Shown piece by piece: positions 31,300 to 63,366 of a stretch of DNA of 64,000 nt. Origin of the DNA: a phage; the NCBI GenBank assembly GCA_022979955.1, contig GCA_022979955.1_3642.1, one strand, 5' to 3'. The stretch's first letter is position 1; every line of letters begins with the position of its first letter. Both the position numbers and the translations under genes were made by a program. The notes under the pieces were generated by a model. The model was given only the letters and a program-made list of their open reading frames with translations, did no database searches and was not told the origin of the DNA.

Positions 31300-32292
31300 T
31301 CAGCAACCACAACTTCCGTAGTGCTTAACTCGCTCGATAACTTCCGCTTGCTTACCTTTATTGTAAGGACGGGAGTTAGGACTGGAAAGATATCCAGACA
31401 CTCTTCGGATCACTGAGATATATTGTTCATCGTGGCATCCACACGCAGGGCAGCAGAACCCTTTAGCTGTTGCACTGAACTCACCAGAGAAACCGCACTT
31501 AAGACATTTATCCACAGGCTGGTTAATACCAAAATACATAATGTGTTTATATCCGAAATCAACAAGAGCTTCCAAAGCATCTAAGTTGTTTTTCAGATTT
31601 GGTGTCTCTATGTACCCAATGTTGCCACCAGAGGAGATCATAGCAAAACCTTCCTCATACTTCCACTTATCAAAAGGCGAGCTATTTATCCATACTGGCT
31701 GATGGAAACTGTTGGTGAGATATTCATGCTCATGCTTCAACACTTCAGGATATTCACGATCCAGACAGGTTGCAGCTTTATAGCATAGACTCTCAGAAGG
31801 GGTGCCGTACAAGCTAAACGCTAGTCTACTTTCCTTCTTGTATCGCTCACAAGCATCTCTCATGTGCTGAAGGATTCCAAGAGCTAAAGCCTTGTCACCC
31901 TCTCTGCCCAAAATCTGACAGGTTTCATACACACCAATATACCCAATACTGATGGAAGCGTACCCGTCATAGAAGAGTTTATCAATACTCTCTTCAGGAT
32001 CCAGGCGAGCAAGAGCGCCTTCACACCACATGATAGGGTTCTGCCCTGCCTTGGTGCCTTTCAGACGGTTAACCCTTACAAGGTGAGCTTCATATGCCAA
32101 ATCCAGATACTCGTCAAGAACGGCAAAGAAATCAACACCTTCCGTCTTAGCTTTTGCCGCAATCATTGGTAGGTTAAGGCTAACAACACCCAAGTTGAAT
32201 CTGCCGAGGTATTTCTCCTCGCCTGTTACAGGGTCGCTATATTTCGATAAGAAACTTCTACACATTATGTTCAGGGTGGTTCGCAAGTCCAC
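31300..32292 (-). CDS. nrdD: anaerobic ribonucleoside-triphosphate reductase, C-terminal exon (glycyl-radical domain)
   Basis: GRFNLGVVSLNLP, Zn-site cysteines CLKCG...CPACGC, glycyl radical motif RVSGY; exon boundary upstream of 32292 not resolved. Confidence 0.7.
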   Translation of the reverse strand: MDLRTTLNIMCRSFLSKYSDPVTGEEKYLGRFNLGVVSLNLPMIAAKAKTEGVDFFAVLDEYLDLAYEAHLVRVNRLKGTKAGQNPIMWCEGALARLDPEESIDKLFYDGYASISIGYIGVYETCQILGREGDKALALGILQHMRDACERYKKESRLAFSLYGTPSESLCYKAATCLDREYPEVLKHEHEYLTNSFHQPVWINSSPFDKWKYEEGFAMISSGGNIGYIETPNLKNNLDALEALVDFGYKHIMYFGINQPVDKCLKCGFSGEFSATAKGFCCPACGCHDEQYISVIRRVSGYLSSPNSRPYNKGKQAEVIERVKHYGSCGC

Positions 32293-33015
32293 CCCCGCAC
32301 CTTTACGTGCTGCTGCATGTTCCCATGCAGATCAGACTATATCTTCACACTTAGTGTGTCTACCATTTCGAGTGTCATCGGCTTACACCCTACACCGCTA
32401 CATTCATCACGGTTAGTCGTTAGGCATTTCGTAACAGAACTCGTAATCATAGTTATTAGGCGCACCACGTTTCAGGATAGCAGATATTCTTTTTCTATCC
32501 ACTCCTAAAACATCAGCACAACATCTCAGACTTTTAAAGTGGAAAACCTCACCAGTTAATTTGTTGGTGGCTTTCACACCGTGGCATCTTGTGTAAAAAG
32601 CATAACAGTTGTTGTTGTATCCTTCTTGCGTATTGTCTGGGCAAGCTCCCCACTCAAGGTTGTATACACTGTTATCTTTCCTGTTGTCCCCTTTGTGCTT
32701 AACATAGGGTAAATTGTCTGGATTTGGTAAGAACGCTTCAGCAACAAGTCTGTGAACCCTTAGGCAAACAGTCTTTTTGTTCTTGCGTATCCTAACAAGA
32801 CGGTAACCTGTGTTTATCTCTTCCCACGAATGAATAATTCTTTCATTTTCGTAGCGGGTGCAATAAACATTGCCCATCTCGTCAATTTCATAACCTTCAA
32901 AATCACGAATTTGTTTTCTCATTTCAGGACTCCTCTTGGTCAGGAGTTCTGTTACGTTTAGCACGGGATTGTCCGTTCTGGAGTTTCCCCGTTTAGATAG
33001 ATTTTACATGAGCAG
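32293..33015 (-). mobile_element. putative group I intron in nrdD carrying an HNH homing endonuclease gene
   Basis: nrdD reading frame interrupted; free-standing HNH ORF with own start inside. Confidence 0.5.
32413..32964 (-). CDS. HNH homing endonuclease
   Basis: HRLVAEAFLPNPDNLPYVKHKGDNRKDNSVYNLEW pattern typical of phage HNH endonucleases. Confidence 0.7.
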   Translation of the reverse strand: MLNVTELLTKRSPEMRKQIRDFEGYEIDEMGNVYCTRYENERIIHSWEEINTGYRLVRIRKNKKTVCLRVHRLVAEAFLPNPDNLPYVKHKGDNRKDNSVYNLEWGACPDNTQEGYNNNCYAFYTRCHGVKATNKLTGEVFHFKSLRCCADVLGVDRKRISAILKRGAPNNYDYEFCYEMPND

Positions 33016-33270
33016 TTATAGTTTACCCATGCTCGTTACTTTACCATCTGTCGATCCTGTCACTTTACGATTTAGTGGAACAGAGACAAAGTCAGGATAA
33101 ATCCGCTCTGCAGAGCATTCCAGAGCTAATCGTTTCAAATCATAGTTAGGATCTCCAGGGTTCATGTTGACACCATCTTCTAGGAAGAACAGCACTTTAG
33201 GGAACACAGGTGTGATACGTTCTTCACCAAGACCCATTTTGTGGACTTTCAAGTAGTTTTTGGTAATCAT
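33016..33270 (-). CDS. nrdD: probable middle exon of nrdD
   Basis: segment PVFPKVLFFLEDGVNMNPGDPNYDL..CSAERIYPDF resembles class III RNR core; boundaries not resolved. Confidence 0.4.
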   Translation of the reverse strand: MITKNYLKVHKMGLGEERITPVFPKVLFFLEDGVNMNPGDPNYDLKRLALECSAERIYPDFVSVPLNRKVTGSTDGKVTSMGKL

Positions 33271-33578
33271 TCTACCAAATACTGAGGTGTCCAGACCTAA
33301 ACTTAATGTGATAAAAGGGGTTTGCGGTCCCCACCCTTATGTTTCCACAAGGCCAGACTATCTCTTGCCTGAAATCACACCGTGTGATTCTTAATCAGAC
33401 CTCTGCGTTTCGGAATCTTCCATAATCCCTACACCAAAAGGTTAGTCGTTACAACCGCCTCACTCCTTGTGAAGCTAGTCACGGGATTGGCATAGCTTGA
33501 GCCTTAGCGTTCCCCGTTAGCCAGCGATCAGCTGACCCCTCATACTGAGGTTAGCAGAGTTTTAAAACGGCCAGCTTG
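33271..33578 (-). other. putative ORF-less group I intron (or spacer) within nrdD
   Basis: about 300 nt GC-balanced, stop-rich sequence between two nrdD-like reading frames. Confidence 0.35.
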
Positions 33579-34442
33579 TTAACCGTTGACAGAAGTTAAC
33601 GTATTGATTTGATAGAGCAAAGTCTGCATGCTGTCAAATACGTCTTTATCTGTCATTTGCATTGCAACAGTCTCAGCATCTGGCAACCAATGTTCCTGGC
33701 AAAATTTAAGGTTCTTCTCATAGGTCGCTTCAGCATACTGTGCCAGATAATGATCAATATGGCTCATAGTCTGACCCCCATATTGAGCACTAGCTACTGC
33801 ACTAGAGATTTGGCTAAGGATTGTTGTTGCAACCCCTATTGACTTAGGCTTACTGACATGGGCGTTACCAATGTTGAATCCGTTTTCCAACATATCTGGA
33901 TAATTTACCAAACAACAGTTTGTTAACGGACTAATCAAGTAGTCAAGATCATGCACATGGATGAAGCCTCTATTGTGCTCTTCTGAGACACGGTCTGGCA
34001 GGATCTGTGTTGATGCAAGGTGTTTGCTAAGGATGCCTGCAAGCAGGTCACGATGAGTGTGTACATGATTGGTAGGCTTATTTGCGTTTTCTTTTGTAAA
34101 TTCATCACAAGTGCGATCCAAGAAGCCACTAATATCTGCAAGCAGTTTTCCACCTGCCTCTCTGTTATTATCTCTTGTCTGCCTATACTGGATGTATTCT
34201 CTGGCTGCACATTTTAAACCCATATCCATAAAAGCGTCTTCAACAAGGGTATGGATATTTTCTACAGAGATCGTGCACTGGTCGGTTGGTAGATTGTTAG
34301 CAACAACTTCATTAACCGCGCAGGCGATCCGGTAAGCTTCTTCTTCAGTATGTCCAGACTCAAGTAAGGCGGACTCTGCCGCCTTGATCACCTTAATCCC
34401 GTTATATACCTCTTCTCTACCGTCCCGTTTTACAACTTTCAC
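33579..34442 (-). CDS. nrdD: anaerobic ribonucleoside-triphosphate reductase, N-terminal exon (ATP-cone)
   Basis: N-terminal ATP-cone-like MKVVKRDGREEVYNGIKV; continues into class III RNR-like sequence. Confidence 0.7.
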   Translation of the reverse strand: MKVVKRDGREEVYNGIKVIKAAESALLESGHTEEEAYRIACAVNEVVANNLPTDQCTISVENIHTLVEDAFMDMGLKCAAREYIQYRQTRDNNREAGGKLLADISGFLDRTCDEFTKENANKPTNHVHTHRDLLAGILSKHLASTQILPDRVSEEHNRGFIHVHDLDYLISPLTNCCLVNYPDMLENGFNIGNAHVSKPKSIGVATTILSQISSAVASAQYGGQTMSHIDHYLAQYAEATYEKNLKFCQEHWLPDAETVAMQMTDKDVFDSMQTLLYQINTLTSVNG

Positions 34443-57361: not shown

Positions 57362-57436
57362 GCCCTGTTAGCTTAGTGGATAAAGCAGCGGCCTTCTAAG
57401 CCGTTGACACTGGTTCGAGTCCAGTACGGGGTGCCA
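57362..57436 (+). tRNA. tRNA-Arg (anticodon UCU)
   Basis: hand-folded cloverleaf: acceptor GCCCTGT/ACGGGGT, anticodon loop CTTCTAA, T-loop TTCGAGT, 3' CCA encoded. Confidence 0.7.
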
Positions 57437-57440
57437 AATT

Positions 57441-57527
57441 GGGGAGTTATCCCGTAGAGGTAGCGGTGTAGACTGTAAATCTATTGTCATTGCGACTCGG
57501 GTGGTTCGACTCCACCACTCCCCACCA
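57441..57527 (+). tRNA. tRNA-Tyr (anticodon GUA), type II long variable arm
   Basis: acceptor GGGGAGT/ACTCCCC, anticodon loop CTGTAAA, T-arm GGTGG-TTCGACT-CCACC, CCA encoded. Confidence 0.7.
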
Positions 57528-57641
57528 AATTTATATTTTTAGATGCGTAAATAATACAGATAATGGCATTGATATTTATCGTCGTTTATACTAGTCACTA
57601 ACTGCTCGAAAATCAGTGTCATTATCAGTATAATTTATAAA

Positions 57642-57732
57642 GGAGGGTAGGGAGCAATGGTGCTCAAGCGGTCTTGAAAACCGTCCCATTGAGGATGACT
57701 CGATGATGGTTCGATTCCATTACTCTCCGCCA
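57642..57732 (+). tRNA. tRNA-Ser (anticodon UGA), type II
   Basis: acceptor GGAGGGT/ACTCTCC, anticodon loop CTTGAAA, long variable arm, T-loop TTCGATT, CCA encoded. Confidence 0.65.
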
Positions 57733-57830
57733 CATTGTTGACCTTGTAATTAAGCGAAAGCCGGAAGCAGAACCGGATTATCAAATGTTACAGTCGTCAT
57801 CGCCGACTAGCAACATGGTCAACATACTGA

Positions 57831-57927
57831 GCTAGGTAAGCCCTTTGGCAAGGGCGAGGATTTTTAATCCTGAAAATAGACGAGGTAGTCGTTGAATACA
57901 TAGGTGGTTCGATTCCACCGCCTAGCA
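57831..57927 (+). tRNA. atypical tRNA-like gene (anticodon loop TTTTTAA, nominal Lys-UUU) with about 30-nt extra arm
   Basis: acceptor GCTAGGT/GCCTAGC, D-arm GCCC-TTTGGCAA-GGGC, T-arm GGTGG-TTCGATT-CCACC; 4-bp anticodon stem; no encoded CCA. Confidence 0.35.
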
Positions 57928-57933
57928 CCTTTT

Positions 57934-58009
57934 GCTGATGTAGCACAATTGGCAGTGCAATTGATTTGTAATCAATAGGTTGCAGGTTCAAGTCCTGCCA
58001 TCAGCACCA
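57934..58009 (+). tRNA. tRNA-Thr (anticodon UGU)
   Basis: acceptor GCTGATG/CATCAGC, anticodon stem ATTGA/TCAAT with loop TTTGTAA, T-arm GCAGG-TTCAAGT-CCTGC, CCA encoded. Confidence 0.75.
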
Positions 58010-58010
58010 T

Positions 58011-58085
58011 GGCCCTGTAGCTGGAAGGTTCAAGCAAGCGACTCATAATCGCCAGATGGTGGTTCAATTCCACCCAGGGCCACCA
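58011..58085 (+). tRNA. tRNA with CAU anticodon (Met, or Ile if lysidine-modified)
   Basis: acceptor GGCCCTG/CAGGGCC, anticodon loop CTCATAA, T-arm GGTGG-TTCAATT-CCACC, CCA encoded. Confidence 0.65.
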
Positions 58086-58096
58086 AATTATAAATA

Positions 58097-58163
58097 CTCC
58101 GCGTAGCTCAGCTTGGTAGAGCGCCTGATTTGGGATCAGGAGGTCGAGTGTTCGAATCACTCC
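58097..58163 (+). tRNA. tRNA-Pro (anticodon UGG)
   Basis: acceptor CTCCGCG/CGTGGAG, anticodon stem CCTGA/TCAGG with loop TTTGGGA, T-loop TTCGAAT, CCA encoded. Confidence 0.7.
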
Positions 58164-58219
58164 GTGGAGACCACCTTTAGTTATACTTTAAACATATACA
58201 AACGAAAGGAACCTTTAAA

Positions 58220-58993: not shown

Positions 58994-59277
58994 GAGTTGC
59001 TACACTGTTTATTGCGTGCTTGTTATTATGTGGGTGTGCAACCAGTGTTGAGAAAGAATACAAGATTGACCCTCCAGATGTAGGAAGGTTGATTGTTAAA
59101 CCCCCAGAAGGTGCCATGAAACCACCTGCTAAAGCTATGCCTTTGAAGAAAGGTGCGCCAGATGCAGTGAACTCTGGCATTATGAGGGATAATAATCTGT
59201 CTTGTAGCAATGATAGAGCTAAATTGATCATTTTGCAAGACTATATTAGAACACTGTTTCCAAAGGAGAGAGGTTAA
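58990..59277 (+). CDS. putative o-spanin (Rz1-like lipoprotein)
   Basis: signal peptide with lipobox LLCGC; Pro-rich mature region; ATGA overlap with upstream gene. Confidence 0.5.
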   Translation: MRVATLFIACLLLCGCATSVEKEYKIDPPDVGRLIVKPPEGAMKPPAKAMPLKKGAPDAVNSGIMRDNNLSCSNDRAKLIILQDYIRTLFPKERG

Positions 59278-59705
59278 TGTCTAAGATTTACGGACCGTGT
59301 TCTGAAAAGCAGAAGATGATCCTAGAAAACGATGCAGATATTTTGGTAATCGGCGGTGCCGCAGGGTCTGGCAAGTCGTTCCTCTTGCAGTTGATGCCAC
59401 TTAAAATTATTGATGACCCCCACAGCTCTGTGGTTATGTTCCGAAGAACAACCCCACAGTTGGAAGGTGAGGGTGGACTATGGCCTAAAGCAGTAGCTAT
59501 TTATAGTGATCTGCCTGAAAACATTAAGCCAAAGTTCAGAGAGAAGGATCATAAGTTCATTTTTCCACGGTTTGATCCGAACACTGGCAAGTGGGATAGG
59601 AGCAAAAAGGGAGCTGTTGTAAAATACTGCCACATGGAGTATGTACAAGATAAGCTTAACCATCAAGGGCTTGAGTACACCATGGTTTGCTTCGATGAGG
59701 GTTAA
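59277..59705 (+). CDS. terL: terminase large subunit, N-terminal exon (ATPase Walker A/B)
   Basis: Walker A VIGGAAGSGKS, Walker B-like MVCFDEG immediately before stop; C-terminal part resumes at about 60619. Confidence 0.6.
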   Translation: MSKIYGPCSEKQKMILENDADILVIGGAAGSGKSFLLQLMPLKIIDDPHSSVVMFRRTTPQLEGEGGLWPKAVAIYSDLPENIKPKFREKDHKFIFPRFDPNTGKWDRSKKGAVVKYCHMEYVQDKLNHQGLEYTMVCFDEG

Positions 59706-60640
59706 TTTGTAGCTCTCGTAAAACCTCCCTAATTGCGGGGAAATCTTTATTATTGACACCACCAACCTGTTATGGTAACATAATAGAGGCTTCGAAGAGA
59801 GATCGAAGGTATGGTAATAGTGTGTTAATTTAGATAATCCGCAGCGAAGCATCCGAGAGGATGAACGTTCAACGACTAGTCGAAAGACGTAGAATCAAGC
59901 GATTCGAAACGGGAGGGTGAATGTGTAATACTAAAAAATGTATGGATTGTCAAAGAGTTCTACCTATTGATGATTTCTTTTTATCATCTAAGAGCAAGGA
60001 TGGATACTCAGGTACATGCAAGGAATGCTATATGTACTACAGGAAGGGTGGATCTCGTAAAAACAAAAATATGGTTAAGAGAGATGACGCAGCATTGTTT
60101 ATTCAAGACTTGCTGAAGAAAGGTGAACTTTTTGAATGCAAATCTTGTCATGAAAGTATGCTCGCTGATAGTTTTTACACAAAACGTGACTATGGTAAAG
60201 TATACCTGGTTACGAACAGGTGTAAGATGTGTGAAAAGTTTTATCAGATTGAGAAAAAATTTCACATAACAAAAGATGAATACTATCGTCTACTCTCAGA
60301 TCAAGATCATAAGTGTGCCATTTGTAGAATATCTCTTGATGAGTATAGGACGCAAGGGTACAGAGATTTCTTTTGTGTTGATCATGACCATAAAACTGGC
60401 GCTGTAAGAGGGTTGCTTTGTGATAAATGCAACAGAGCTTTAGGTTTCTTCCAAGAGGATGAGGAAACTATTCTTAGAGCGGCAGAGTATTTGCACATTC
60501 ATAAGATATAGTCTGGTCTGCATGGAGACATGCAGCTGCCTGAAAATGGCGGGGCAAGACTAGCGACCTTGCCCGAACATAAACGACACAATTCGAATGG
60601 GAGCAGATAGACTACCTGATGTCTCGTTTGCGATCTCAGT
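59706..60640 (+). mobile_element. putative group I intron in terL carrying an HNH homing endonuclease gene
   Basis: terL frame interrupted right after Walker B; structured-looking flanks; free-standing HNH ORF with own SD; boundaries approximate. Confidence 0.5.
59921..60511 (+). CDS. HNH homing endonuclease (endonuclease VII-type motif)
   Basis: CVDHDHKTGAVRGLLCDKCNRALG motif plus N-terminal Cys-rich region; GGGAGGGTGA SD. Confidence 0.7.
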   Translation: MCNTKKCMDCQRVLPIDDFFLSSKSKDGYSGTCKECYMYYRKGGSRKNKNMVKRDDAALFIQDLLKKGELFECKSCHESMLADSFYTKRDYGKVYLVTNRCKMCEKFYQIEKKFHITKDEYYRLLSDQDHKCAICRISLDEYRTQGYRDFFCVDHDHKTGAVRGLLCDKCNRALGFFQEDEETILRAAEYLHIHKI

Positions 60641-61707
60641 CAAAGTATCCATCAAGGATGGTTATCAGCTGTAACCCTGATTCAGAACACATGCTTGCCA
60701 AACTGGTTAGATGGTGGTTGGACGATGAAGGGTATCCAGATCCGGAGAAATGTGGTAAGAAAAGATATTTTATCCGACGCGACGGTGAATTTATTTGGGG
60801 AGACTCTAAGGAAGAGTTGATAGAGAAATACACCACGGTTAACGGACTGGGTGTAGAGATCAAGCCAAGACCGTTGTCATTCTCGTTCATAGGCGCAACA
60901 ATATTTGATAATCCTGTCTGTTTGAGAGACAACCCAGAATACCTTGCTTTCCTCGAAGGTCTGCCAGAGCTGGAAAAAGCTCAGCTTCTCCATGGTAACT
61001 GGTTTGCAAAGCCTGAGGGTGCAAACTATTTTCAAAGATCTTTCCTTCGTGATGCCGATAGAGTACCCCTTGGATCAGTATCTTGCAGGGCATGGGATAA
61101 GGCAGGAACCGAGAGAACTTCTGGCAATAAATTTCCTGACTTTACTGCCAGTATTAAGGTAAGTAAAGATAGCGACGGCTTTTATTACCTGTCAGGGGAT
61201 TATTGTCCTGAAAACGTGGATGACGGGAGGTATTCCACAGGTCTGGAAGGCAAGTTCTGTAAAAAGGCTGGTGAACGAGATGTGATCATCAGGAAACAGG
61301 CGCAGTTTGATGGTGATGATTGCATAATCGTATTCTCTGTGGACCCTGGTCAGGCAGGTAAGAGTGAGTTCTTAACCTCATCCAGATCCTTGCTCGCCGA
61401 AGGGTTCAGGGTTGAAGAAGACCCAATGCCTTCCAACAAATCTAAACTGACAAGGTTCTCACCTTTTGCCAATCTTGCACAACAAGGGATGGTGAGGATT
61501 GTAAAATCCAGTTTCCATCCTGATACTCTGGAAGCATTTCTGACTGAACTTGAAAAATTCAACGGGGAAAGATCAACATTTAACAGAAAAGACGACTGGG
61601 CAGACTGTGTAGCTTCTGCGATTAATTTCCTGGAGAAAGAGGAGGTAGCACTTCCTTGTGTGATTCCATCAATCTCATCACCTTCTATGTTCAAGCGTTT
61701 TATCTAA
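60619..61707 (+). CDS. terL: terminase large subunit, C-terminal exon (nuclease domain); true exon start unresolved
   Basis: continues terminase after the intron (ISCNPD segment near start); size and position before portal. Confidence 0.55.
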   Translation: MSRLRSQSKYPSRMVISCNPDSEHMLAKLVRWWLDDEGYPDPEKCGKKRYFIRRDGEFIWGDSKEELIEKYTTVNGLGVEIKPRPLSFSFIGATIFDNPVCLRDNPEYLAFLEGLPELEKAQLLHGNWFAKPEGANYFQRSFLRDADRVPLGSVSCRAWDKAGTERTSGNKFPDFTASIKVSKDSDGFYYLSGDYCPENVDDGRYSTGLEGKFCKKAGERDVIIRKQAQFDGDDCIIVFSVDPGQAGKSEFLTSSRSLLAEGFRVEEDPMPSNKSKLTRFSPFANLAQQGMVRIVKSSFHPDTLEAFLTELEKFNGERSTFNRKDDWADCVASAINFLEKEEVALPCVIPSISSPSMFKRFI

Positions 61708-61809
61708 GTGTTGCCAATCTTAATTAGATGTGGTAGAATAGAGTAATCGGAGATACTAGCCCTCTAACACGAGGGCTATTTTGTTATACTGTTTTGAGGG
61801 GTAAAGCTT

Positions 61810-63366
61810 GTGTCCAAAAAGAACCGCAGGAAACACAACGCCACAGCCAAAACTGTGAATAAATCTGGGAACGCAGGCGCACCAACTCATAATGTTCGTA
61901 TGAGTGAGATCGGTTCTGGCGCACTTTCCCAAATTATGGCAGAATCGCAATCTATGATGGTTGAGGAATTGCGTTGGCCTCAGCTGATTGCCACAGTGGA
62001 GACTATGAAATGTGATTCCACAGTTGCTACTGCCTTAGATACAAAATATGTTTTCATCACGAAAGCATTCAATGATTTTAAGATCCTTTATAATGTTAAA
62101 AGTGAAGACTCTAAGAAAGCTGCTGAGCTTATAGAGTATTCTTTGCGTAATTTGGCAAACCAACAAACTCTTCGAGATATTGCAAGAAGCGCAGCTACCT
62201 TTAACGAGTATGGTTTTTCACTGTTTGAGAAAGTATACCGCAGAGAGAAAGAAGGTAAATATGCCGGGATGCTTCTTATTGATAAAATTGCATTCCGACC
62301 TCAGGCCAGTTTGTCCAGATCAGAGCCGTTTGTCTTTGACAAGAATAGTAGAACACTGACAGGTATTTATCAGTCACCTAATGCATTTCTAAACACTCAG
62401 AATGCACGCTGGGCTGGACCTCTTGCTGCAATGCCTTCAAAAGGCTTTAATGAGCCTGAAATTTTCATCCCTGCTAAAAAGCTTATGCTCATGACCCTGT
62501 CAGGAACAGAATCTAACCCTGCAGGTGTGTCACCGATGATAGGTTGCTACAGATCTTTCCGTGAGAAAGTTCTGATTGAAAACCTTGAGGTTGTTGGCTG
62601 TTCCAAAGACCTTGGTGGTGTGCTTGAGCTGAAAATTCCTTCCAATATTTTGAACAAGGCCAGCATTGACCCGAATTCAATGGAAGGGAGAATGGTTGCA
62701 GACCTTATGCTTGACGCAGCAAACGCCCATAGTGGTGAGCAAAGTTTCTTTATACTTCCGTCTGATAGAGATAAGTCTGGTAAAGAGCTTTACTCCATGA
62801 CCCTGAAGGGGGTTGACGGTATGGGTAAGCAATATTCCACTAAAGATTTGATCGATGCCCGTAAGAAGGCGATTCTTGACCGTTTCGGTGCTGGCTTTAT
62901 TAACCTCGGTAACGATAACGTTGGATCCTTCTCTCTGTCTGAGTCAAAACAGTCTATCCATGGTCATTTTGTTCAGCGTGATATAGATATTATCACTGAA
63001 GCCTTCAATAAGGATCTTATTCCACAGCTTCTGGCATTGAATGGTATCATCCTTGAAGATGATGATATGCCTAAACTGAAACCTGGTCTGATTGAAGAGG
63101 TGGACATGGAGAGCTTCTCCAAGTTTGTCCAGAGGATCGGTGCTGTAGGTTACTTGCCAAAAACTCCTGCAGTAATTAATAAGATTCTTGAAGTAGGCGG
63201 GTTTGATGAAAGATTTGACGAGGACATGGATCAGGAAGAGCTGATGAAGCTCTTGGGCCAGGACATCAGTAGGGCTGGTGATGGAATGGCTGCAGGATCC
63301 ACTGGTAACGGCACTTCTAAGATGTCATCAACCAGAGATAATTCCATATCCAACATGGAAAATTAA
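61810..63366 (+). CDS. putative portal protein (GTG start)
   Basis: 518 aa directly downstream of terL; GAGGGG SD before GTG; call by position and size only. Confidence 0.45.
   Translation: MSKKNRRKHNATAKTVNKSGNAGAPTHNVRMSEIGSGALSQIMAESQSMMVEELRWPQLIATVETMKCDSTVATALDTKYVFITKAFNDFKILYNVKSEDSKKAAELIEYSLRNLANQQTLRDIARSAATFNEYGFSLFEKVYRREKEGKYAGMLLIDKIAFRPQASLSRSEPFVFDKNSRTLTGIYQSPNAFLNTQNARWAGPLAAMPSKGFNEPEIFIPAKKLMLMTLSGTESNPAGVSPMIGCYRSFREKVLIENLEVVGCSKDLGGVLELKIPSNILNKASIDPNSMEGRMVADLMLDAANAHSGEQSFFILPSDRDKSGKELYSMTLKGVDGMGKQYSTKDLIDARKKAILDRFGAGFINLGNDNVGSFSLSESKQSIHGHFVQRDIDIITEAFNKDLIPQLLALNGIILEDDDMPKLKPGLIEEVDMESFSKFVQRIGAVGYLPKTPAVINKILEVGGFDERFDEDMDQEELMKLLGQDISRAGDGMAAGSTGNGTSKMSSTRDNSISNMEN

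Follow-up and report, generated by a model that had tools for sequence, protein, structure and literature searches.

The large terminase (TerL) gene of an rV5-like E. coli phage (Vequintavirus) is interrupted by a group I intron that carries a homing endonuclease gene. This arrangement is real and well supported, and it is also an ordinary and already known one. We are highly confident that the interruption, at 59703..60585, is a self-splicing intron belonging to the T-even lineage (td-like, IA-type). Coordinates refer to the window, which is the whole stretch of 64,000 nucleotides analysed here (GenBank assembly GCA_022979955.1, contig GCA_022979955.1_3642.1).

The locus contains three ORFs. 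The first (59277..59705, 142 aa) ends in ...MVCFDEG followed by TAA, and the second (59921..60511, 196 aa) begins 215 nt past the end of the first, with a GGAGG Shine-Dalgarno (SD) sequence 4 nt upstream of its ATG; both were correctly described in an earlier note on this DNA. The third ORF (60619..61707) encodes 362 aa. The features of the locus are as follows.

59277..59702, + strand: TerL exon 1, 142 codons (ORF, Pfam, PHROG and alignment)
59703..60585, + strand: group I intron, 883 nt (Rfam RF00028, insertion relative to intron-less alleles, helix map)
59921..60511, + strand: putative homing endonuclease, 196 aa (Pfam PF02945, PHROG and PDB matches)
60586..61707, + strand: TerL exon 2, 373 codons and stop, encoding the remainder of the ATPase domain and an RNase H-like nuclease domain

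The start codon of exon 1 overlaps the o-spanin stop codon (TAATG), and the exon encodes the Walker A motif GGAAGSGKS, the Walker B motif MVCFDE, and then Gly142. Comparison with intron-less alleles by blastn revealed an 883-nt insertion at gene nt 426/427, directly after the codon following the Walker B Asp-Glu. Exon 1 aligned with nt 1-426 of the intron-less TerL gene of bov25_3, and exon 2 with nt 427-1548. Alignment with uninterrupted terminases, a check proposed in the earlier note, located the splice sites, the insertion being exactly 59703..60585. Its first three bases are an in-frame stop codon, UAA, and its last base is the terminal guanosine (omega-G) G60585 directly before exon 2, a boundary set by the alignment with the intron-less alleles. 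The terminase frame resumes downstream of the endonuclease gene as had been noted, not at about 60619 but at 60586; the frame is open from 60583, and the ATG at 60619 is not the true restart.

The two exons together encode one T4-type large terminase, with an N-terminal ATPase carrying Walker A/B and a C-terminal RNase H-like nuclease on a single polypeptide. The Pfam Terminase_6N profile is divided between the first ORF (profile 2-104) and the third (117-211), and the third ORF also contains the Terminase_6C nuclease domain. PHROG 979 crosses the junction without a gap (profile 147-273 in exon 1 and 274-621 in exon 2; 8e-153 for exon 2). The predicted spliced protein of 515 aa is 100% and 99.8% identical to the single-ORF TerL proteins of bov25_3 and Murica, respectively, and the uninterrupted alleles are joined as ...MVCFDEG/TQFEWEQ.... 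At least 80% of the spliced protein is spanned by 1228 phage records. A PDB sequence search with the spliced TerL gave no match, and an NCBIfam search gave only sub-threshold matches for TerL and none for the endonuclease. The ligated mRNA is predicted to carry the junction GATGAGGGT/ACACAATTC, and the protein the junction-spanning peptide ...CFDEGTQFEWEQ....

The proposal of a group I intron in TerL was borne out by the Rfam group I model RF00028, which matched 59693..60535 over the full model (cmscan, E=1e-9, 45.6 bits; gathering score 50), as well as by the intron-less alleles, the splice-site U·G pair and terminal G, and the covarying helices described below. At the gathering threshold, the whole window yielded tRNAs only; the TerL intron is missed there because the ORF in P8 costs score, and its detection needed the E-value mode. 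The ORF-less copy of the intron in rV5 scored 84.9 bits (E=6.5e-21), which exceeds the curated threshold of 50. Related introns usually score 24-35 bits under RF00028 when they bear an ORF and 75-94 bits when they do not, so a sub-threshold score of 45.6 bits is typical of ORF-bearing introns under this model. An authentic T4-type td intron, that of RB3, gave no Rfam match at E<0.01. The model is thus weak on ORF-bearing introns, and 45.6 bits is not negative evidence. No Rfam match was obtained with the intron-less TerL locus.

The conserved group I core is present, with P3-P8, a P3/P7 pseudoknot, and the R/S-type strands GACUA / UAGUC. Helices P1 and P3–P9.2, including P7.1/P7.2, are arranged in canonical order.

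59697..59717, + strand: P1 hairpin (Rfam alignment and MFE fold of 59695-59722)
59724-59729 / 59911-59916, + strand: P3, CCUCCC / GGGAGG (Rfam alignment and fold)
59734-59739 / 59838-59843, + strand: P4, inside P3
59743-59835, + strand: extended P5 domain, inside P3
59844-59868, + strand: P6/P6a, inside P3
59874-59878, + strand: 5' strand of P7, GACUA, inside P3
59879-59888, + strand: P7.1, GUC-GAAA-GAC, inside P3
59892-59905, + strand: P7.2, GAAUC-AAGC-GAUUC, inside P3
59919..60500, + strand: P8 region, stem GAAUGUG 59919-59925 / CACAUUC 60494-60500, whose loop contains the endonuclease ORF
60501..60585, + strand: 3' domain, from J8/7 and the 3' strand of P7 (UAGUC, 60509-60513) through the terminal G60585
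60518-60524 / 60529-60535, + strand: P9, GAGA loop, in the 3' domain
60538-60540 / 60548-60550, + strand: P9.1, in the 3' domain
60552-60558 / 60568-60574, + strand: P9.2, in the 3' domain

P1 comprises 8 bp, in which exon GAGGGU and intron UA (59697-59704) pair with UAGCUCUC (59710-59717), and the wobble U59702·G59712 marks the 5' splice site. A P10 pairing between ACA (60586-60588) and UGU (59708-59710) is possible, of only 3 bp. No P2 helix is present between P1 and P3, where the spacer is only GUAAAA, and the Rfam alignment deletes P2. Features of subgroup IA2 were found, namely P7.1/P7.2 between P7 and P3, the P9.1/P9.2 extension, and T-even sequence kinship. Because P2 is missing, we call the intron td-like or IA-type and not a strict IA2 member.

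Over 79 nt, the 3' domain shares 83.5% identity with the 3' end of the T4 td intron. In an alignment of 11 phage introns, 96.8% of the cells in P9/P9.1/P9.2 were paired, compared with 31-38% when the partners were slid. Compensatory (double) changes were found in 10/17 pairs of these helices, and the observed values were reached in 0/500 shuffles; these counts are slightly too low, as the MAFFT alignment of this domain places rV5 intron 2 one column off register in P9.1. A by-hand comparison of four introns, including those of PA7 and BSP9, showed compensatory changes in P4, P6a, P7.1, P7.2, and P8, with P7.1 and P7.2 both co-varying in PA7 and BSP9. This covariation comes from more distant introns, as the Vequintavirus copies are at least 98% identical and too alike to gauge selection on the ribozyme within the genus. 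One match, to ΦTE, was taken at first for the TerL intron of ΦTE/CB7 and is actually located in nrdA. Two more group I introns are present in nrdD, in the same window.

The endonuclease consists of two N-terminal CxxC...CxxC zinc-ribbon repeats and a C-terminal ββα-Me nuclease of the Endo VII type (...CVDHDHKTGAVRGLLCDKCN...). Residues 110-192 matched Pfam Endonuclease_7 (PF02945) at 2e-21, and this was the sole Pfam report at E up to 0.01; the canonical HNH profile (PF01844) was unmatched. The best match to PHROG endonuclease VII families was 3.4e-33, and the PDB matches were Hpy99I (9.6e-6) and T4 Endo VII (5.7e-4). The enzyme had been described as an HNH endonuclease, which holds at the level of the superfamily, as PMC5714182 places Endonuclease_7 and HNH in one His-Me finger superfamily; the subfamily is PF02945 and not canonical HNH. 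The gene is woven into the ribozyme: its SD is the 3' strand of P3, its ATG lies in the 5' strand of P8, and its stop codon UAG lies in the 3' strand of P7. The ORF occurs in about 30 records at protein identities of at least 95%, and is unrelated to rV5 ORF65, another Vequintavirus intron endonuclease.

Six genomes were compared, with TerL exons at least 96.5% identical, and four allelic states were distinguished: an empty site, the intron by itself, the intron bearing the ORF, and both introns together. The near-identical bov25_3 and Murica are without the insertion. The ORF-bearing form is present and annotated in JES2013, APECc02, MaxBurger, and others, and the MaxBurger record (BASEL) annotates TerL as a join. 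The first intron of rV5 is at the same nucleotide position as the window intron, with a core about 99% identical. This copy is ORF-less and 319 nt long, and its P8 is a different, perfectly paired hairpin, AAGCGA/UCGCUU, in the same place. The endonuclease gene is an optional one associated with a mobile intron, present in some close relatives and absent from others. A second TerL intron of rV5 (about 982 nt, bearing an unrelated HNH ORF) is at gene nt 743/744, a site that is empty in the window, at 60902/60903. The codon before the shared insertion site is GGT in 4/4 intron-bearing alleles compared and GGC in 2/2 intron-less alleles, and the GGT provides the U for the U·G pair of P1.

The TerL introns of rV5 were reported in 2013 (Kropinski et al. 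2013, Virol J 10:76, PMC3606486), and its GenBank record (DQ832317) contains a CDS, 'ORF64ABC', joined from 3 pieces. The window resembles rV5 in gene, genus, and first-intron site, and differs from it in that rV5 has an ORF-less first intron and an extra second intron. The JES2013 homologue has been listed as an Endo VII-type endonuclease encoded within an intron (Fang et al. 2018, Mob DNA 9:27, PMC6083498). No splicing experiment on this particular intron was found in the searchable literature. In Pectobacterium phage CB7 (Certrevirus, Vequintavirinae), the TerL intron splices in vivo, as demonstrated by RT-PCR and sequencing (Buttimer et al. 2020, PMC7344957). The CB7 and window introns are alike in subfamily, gene, Walker B motif, and group I type; both contain an endonuclease ORF, and their 3' domains are similar. 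However, the CB7 intron is 6 nt upstream of the window site (...GVD/EGTQF... versus ...FDEG/TQF...), and its endonuclease is HNH/NUMOD-like, whereas that of the window is of the Endo VII type. The difference in position rules out the same insertion, and the CB7 intron is a neighbouring, independent insertion and not the same element.

The T4 td intron (group I, subgroup IA2, encoding I-TevI) is like the window intron in P7', P9, P9.1, P9.2, and P7.1/P7.2. Both have a stop codon at their very start and an endonuclease ORF looped from a peripheral helix. The td ORF is in the P6 loop and that of the window intron in P8; I-TevI belongs to the GIY-YIG enzymes and not to those with an Endo VII motif. 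The host gene of the td intron encodes thymidylate synthase and that of the window TerL, and the window intron differs from td in being without P2 and with a long P5 extension. The Endo VII-motif homing endonuclease family of F-CphI shares its catalytic domain with the window enzyme (PF02945, T4 Endo VII, Hpy99I); F-CphI is free-standing beside an intron, whereas the putative window enzyme is encoded inside one. By description, the locus can also be likened to the first group I intron-interrupted large terminase, that of an unrelated siphovirus of a Gram-positive host.

TerL might instead remain split and unspliced, the insertion being a degenerate intron or a cassette with a free-standing endonuclease, and its two polypeptides would then associate post-translationally. 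Essential phage genes with endonuclease insertions that do not splice exist: NrdA of Aeromonas phage Aeh1, split by mobE, is reported to be made as two assembling polypeptides, and there is one case in CB7 (PMC7344957). The in-frame ATG at 60619 could serve as a second start. However, this ATG has no Shine-Dalgarno sequence at a usable distance, and a start there loses 11 conserved residues, TQFEWEQIDYL, which are exactly as in the uninterrupted alleles, with codons that differ only synonymously. The split also falls inside the ATPase fold, directly past Walker B, and the ribozyme core is complete, at 84.9 bits in the ORF-less form, with a U·G pair and a terminal G at the boundaries. We regard two separate polypeptides as very unlikely.

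Still less probable, to the point of being negligible, is a reading in which the 142-aa ORF encodes a separate protein, a small ATPase or one resembling a small terminase, and the real large terminase is encoded downstream. The first ORF does begin at a start codon of its own and contains both Walker A and Walker B, but both parts are in one ORF in homologues of 34-100% identity from Escherichia, Cronobacter, Klebsiella, Vibrio, and Pseudomonas phages, and the Pfam and PHROG terminase profiles are divided between the two ORFs without overlap. These uninterrupted homologues and split profiles refute a distinct small ATPase, an outcome the earlier note had named as one that would overturn its interpretation. 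Nothing specific speaks for an artefact of sequencing or assembly, for a defective genome with TerL as a pseudogene, for an intein, or for programmed frameshifting, and we give these readings equally little credence. The arrangement recurs at 95-99% identity in the independently sequenced genomes of about 50 viable, plaque-forming phage isolates, so it is not due to chance or an assembly artefact. The insertion opens with the stop codon TAA and its 883 nt are not a multiple of 3, which excludes both an intein and a recoding site.

Under the self-splicing group I intron that we favour, TerL pre-mRNA would be transcribed through the intron, and ribosomes would halt at its opening UAA. The RNA would fold into the P1-P9.2 core, in which free guanosine would attack after U59702, held in the U·G wobble of P1, and the freed exon end would then attack after G60585. 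Ligation of 59702 to 60586 would create a 1548-nt ORF encoding the 515-aa TerL (...MVCFDEG-TQFEWEQIDYLMSRLRS...). We infer that the intron splices in this manner in vivo. Mobility of the intron would depend on the 196-aa Endo VII-motif protein, whose gene occupies the P8 loop. When intron-bearing and intron-less phages infect the same cell, this protein would cleave the TerL alleles without the intron close to the insertion site, and recombinational repair would copy the intron and flanking synonymous exon markers into the cut alleles. Endonuclease translation and ribozyme folding are probably mutually exclusive, since the ribosome-binding site and start codon of the endonuclease are paired in P3 and P8; translation would be controlled in this way.

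With at least four TerL allele states in Vequintavirus, the Endo VII-type enzyme may exceed the role of a selfish homing factor. Tentatively, and with less than even expectation, we propose that it acts as a weapon, cutting an essential gene, that for packaging, in co-infecting relatives without the intron, that its expression is gated by the ribozyme fold, as the position of its SD in P3 and ATG in P8 would allow, and that the wholly different P8 hairpins of the ORF-less and ORF-bearing copies record the invasion of a pre-existing intron by an endonuclease gene. Weapon-like cutting of a gene of co-infecting relatives has been shown for the endonuclease of the RNA-polymerase intron of ΦPA3 (Birkholz et al. 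2024, PMC11620839).

The TerL intron leaves current understanding unchanged. It matters for annotation, as many deposited genomes of this phage group list two 'terminase' CDSs and a 'recombination endonuclease VII', and the curated Rfam threshold misses the intron whenever it bears the ORF. It is also a clean textbook example: the mobile group I intron occupies an essential gene at its most conserved motif, and alleles with an empty site, with the ORF-less intron, and with the ORF-bearing intron co-exist in one genus. They could provide a natural system for studying the life cycle of introns and homing endonucleases and phage-phage competition.

The large terminase gene (TerL) is divided over a stretch that holds three open reading frames (ORFs):

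59277..59705, plus strand: 142-aa ORF, ending in MVCFDEG followed by TAA
59921..60511, plus strand: 196-aa ORF, with GGAGG upstream
60619..61707, plus strand: 362-aa ORF

Pfam analysis placed Terminase_6N profile positions 2-104 in the 142-aa ORF and 117-211 in the 362-aa ORF, which also contains the Terminase_6C nuclease domain. The PHROG 979 terminase profile stops at 273 in the first TerL piece and picks up at 274 in the second. These results confirm the layout described in an earlier note, in which a terminase frame ending at MVCFDEG is followed by an endonuclease ORF and a further terminase frame. Its reading of a group I intron with an endonuclease splitting TerL was also right, as indicated by the Rfam match and the intron-less alleles described below. 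The region 59000..62000 matched 143 phage records by megablast, nearly all of them rV5-like coliphages (Vequintavirus); the best match was 98.7% identical.

TerL is preceded by genes for the i-spanin and o-spanin and by a tRNA cluster (57362..58173: Arg, Tyr, Ser, Thr, Met, Pro), and it is followed by a Mu-type portal gene. Inside the cluster, ARAGORN predicted a 'tRNA-???' of 99 nt whose anticodon has 4 bases (57831..57929). The Rfam tRNA model did not match this feature, which is possibly a tRNA that has degenerated or acquired an insertion. Between TerL and the portal gene, a hairpin (UAGCCCUC-UAACAC-GAGGGCUA) followed by a T-run was found at 61757..61778. The annotations of rV5, Murica, and HdK5 all give a rho-independent terminator here. 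A weak Rfam 'Phe_leader' match at this position is spurious.

The 5' splice site, after U59702 (GAGGGU/UAA, slash at the junction), was read off the Rfam P1 pairing, and the 3' splice site, after G60585, was determined from the reading frame and the required terminal G. These sites give an 883-nt intron and a 515-aa TerL joined as ...MVCFDEG/TQFEWEQIDYLMSRLRS.... By tblastn, the predicted 515-aa protein is encoded without interruption in two natural intron-less alleles: bov25_3 matches it at 100% over one continuous stretch of 1545 nt, and Murica at 99.8%. In blastn against bov25_3, TerL nucleotides 1-425 and 427-1548 aligned, flanking the 883-nt insertion, and only the junction of 59702 with 60586 yielded an in-frame 1548-nt gene. 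Thus, the alignment with uninterrupted terminases proposed in the earlier note fixes the splice sites. The site reads GGT/ACA in all four intron-bearing alleles compared and GGC/ACG in both intron-less alleles; the T accounts for the uridine in the U·G wobble pair.

Six genomes with TerL exons at least 96.5% identical showed four allele states:

bov25_3 and Murica: both TerL intron sites empty
the window and MaxBurger: intron 1 present and carrying the Endo VII ORF, no intron 2
rV5: ORF-less intron 1 plus intron 2
HdK5: intron 1 and intron 2, each with an ORF

In our own search, roughly 121 phage records carried TerL at ≥99% protein identity. Intron 1 was present in about 53 of these and the Endo VII ORF in about 30, approximate counts from separate searches not reconciled per record. 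The empty site of intron 2 is at 60902/60903 in the window, where rV5 and HdK5 hold an intron of ~982 nt (ACC AU/A UUC; Rfam 35 bits) with an unrelated HNH endonuclease (rV5 ORF65). About 18-25 'Campylobacter phage' records (C15, A12a, A116, A141, and others; GenBank MG0656xx, e.g. MG065654) are ~95-99% identical to the TerL and nrdD regions of the window and are therefore genomes of rV5-like coliphages; their host labels look doubtful.

The Rfam group I intron model RF00028 matched 59693..60535 over the whole model (E=1e-9), and this check, also suggested earlier, supports the intron even though its 45.6 bits lie below the gathering score of 50. At the same TerL position, rV5 carries a 319-nt intron without an ORF. 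It scored 84.9 bits (E=6.5e-21), and outside P8 only three substitutions separate its core from that of the window. In other phages, ORF-less relatives scored 75-94 bits and ORF-bearing ones 24-35, the range for ORF-bearing phage introns more widely being 24-47 bits, and the authentic td intron of phage RB3 gave no RF00028 match at E<0.01. The score in the window is therefore in line with ORF-bearing introns, which scans at the gathering threshold systematically miss.

P1, P3, P4, extended P5, P6/P6a, P7, P7.1, P7.2, P8, P9, P9.1, and P9.2 were found in canonical order; helix mapping gave no P2. Across 11 phage introns, 96.8% of cells in the P9-P9.2 domain were paired, versus 31-38% when the partners were displaced by 1-3 columns. 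Of the 17 pairs, 10 showed compensatory double changes, and none of 500 shuffles reached the observed values. P4, P6a, P7.1, P7.2, and P8 showed compensatory changes relative to the PA7 and BSP9 phage introns, compared by hand. The last 79 nt of the intron share 83.5% identity with the T4 td intron.

The endonuclease ORF is located in the P8 loop. The earlier note had called its product HNH; the ORF is present, but its family match is Endonuclease_7 (PF02945, 2e-21, Pfam). In the protein, two CxxC...CxxC repeats are followed by a C-terminal Endo VII-type ββα-Me domain. The nearest relatives with solved structures are Hpy99I (1e-5) and T4 endonuclease VII (6e-4), and sequence comparison showed no relation to the HNH protein of the second rV5 TerL intron. 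The Shine-Dalgarno GGAGG forms the P3 3' strand, the ATG is part of the P8 5' strand, and the UAG stop falls inside the P7 3' strand. P8 is GAAUGUG...CACAUUC (59919..59925 / 60494..60500) in the window versus AAGCGA-UUGUUG-UCGCUU in the ORF-less rV5 form (locus L004, 1243..1260). Because the rV5 P8 hairpin is different and perfectly paired, the forms differ by whole-P8 replacement rather than by a sequence gained or lost in the loop. Within the P5 extension, at 59753..59781 and 140 nt 5' of the ATG, there is a strong sigma-70-like match (TTGACA, 17 nt, TG-TAACAT). It may represent an internal promoter driving the endonuclease ORF, although resemblance to a consensus is not evidence by itself.

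Two more group I introns, both missing from Murica, interrupt nrdD (anaerobic ribonucleotide reductase, 34442..31300, minus strand):

33581..33325, minus strand: ORF-less group I intron, 257 nt (Murica nrdD comparison; Rfam)
33024..32263, minus strand: group I intron, 762 nt, with a td-like 3' domain (Rfam 35.3 bits)
32964..32413, minus strand: HNH_3 / I-HmuI-NUMOD-like ORF in the 762-nt intron

Attention was drawn to nrdD by scanning the entire window with Rfam at permissive settings. The 257-nt intron follows exon GGU (Murica GGG), begins with UAA, and ends with G; it scored only 28.9 bits (E=1e-5, local stretch), and whole-window scans missed it. The six exon codons directly 3' of the 762-nt intron were all reported as synonymously recoded (TGT AGA AGT TTC TTA TCG vs Murica TGC CGG AGT TTT CTT AGC), the pattern expected close to the target of a homing endonuclease. 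Of the 304 phage records that matched this region, only 18 covered at least 80% of it.

The main alternative for TerL is that the split gene is not spliced and two polypeptides are made. The intact ribozyme and canonical intron boundaries argue against this; moreover, the ATG at 60619 has no usable ribosome-binding site, and starting there would cost 11 conserved residues. The possibility raised in the earlier note that the 142-aa ORF is a distinct small-terminase-like ATPase is refuted by the uninterrupted TerL homologues. Neither an intein nor a frameshift is compatible with the stop codon and with an insertion of 883 nt. The best explanation, and very probably the correct one, is that guanosine-initiated self-splicing would restore TerL, while the Endo VII-type protein would drive homing into empty TerL alleles.

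Introns in this gene have been described previously. Kropinski et al. 2013 (PMC3606486), under 'Introns in terminase', reported rV5 TerL in three segments, one with a homing endonuclease, and thanked D. Shub for the intron location; in GenBank, the rV5 gene is likewise joined from three pieces. Phage JES2013 shares 98% identity with the window in the TerL region, and Fang et al. 2018 (PMC6083498) entered its Endo VII-motif protein as intron-encoded. The MaxBurger record (BASEL) gives TerL as a join and includes a 'putative homing endonuclease', and the BASEL paper identified intron boundaries through comparative genomics. We found no splicing experiment on this TerL intron of Vequintavirus in the searchable literature. 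In the related Certrevirus CB7, RT-PCR showed in vivo splicing of a TerL intron (PMC7344957), which lies 6 nt upstream of the site in the window and has a different endonuclease. The finding of the earlier note is real and its interpretation right, and the TerL intron is an ordinary trait already known from this genus of phages.
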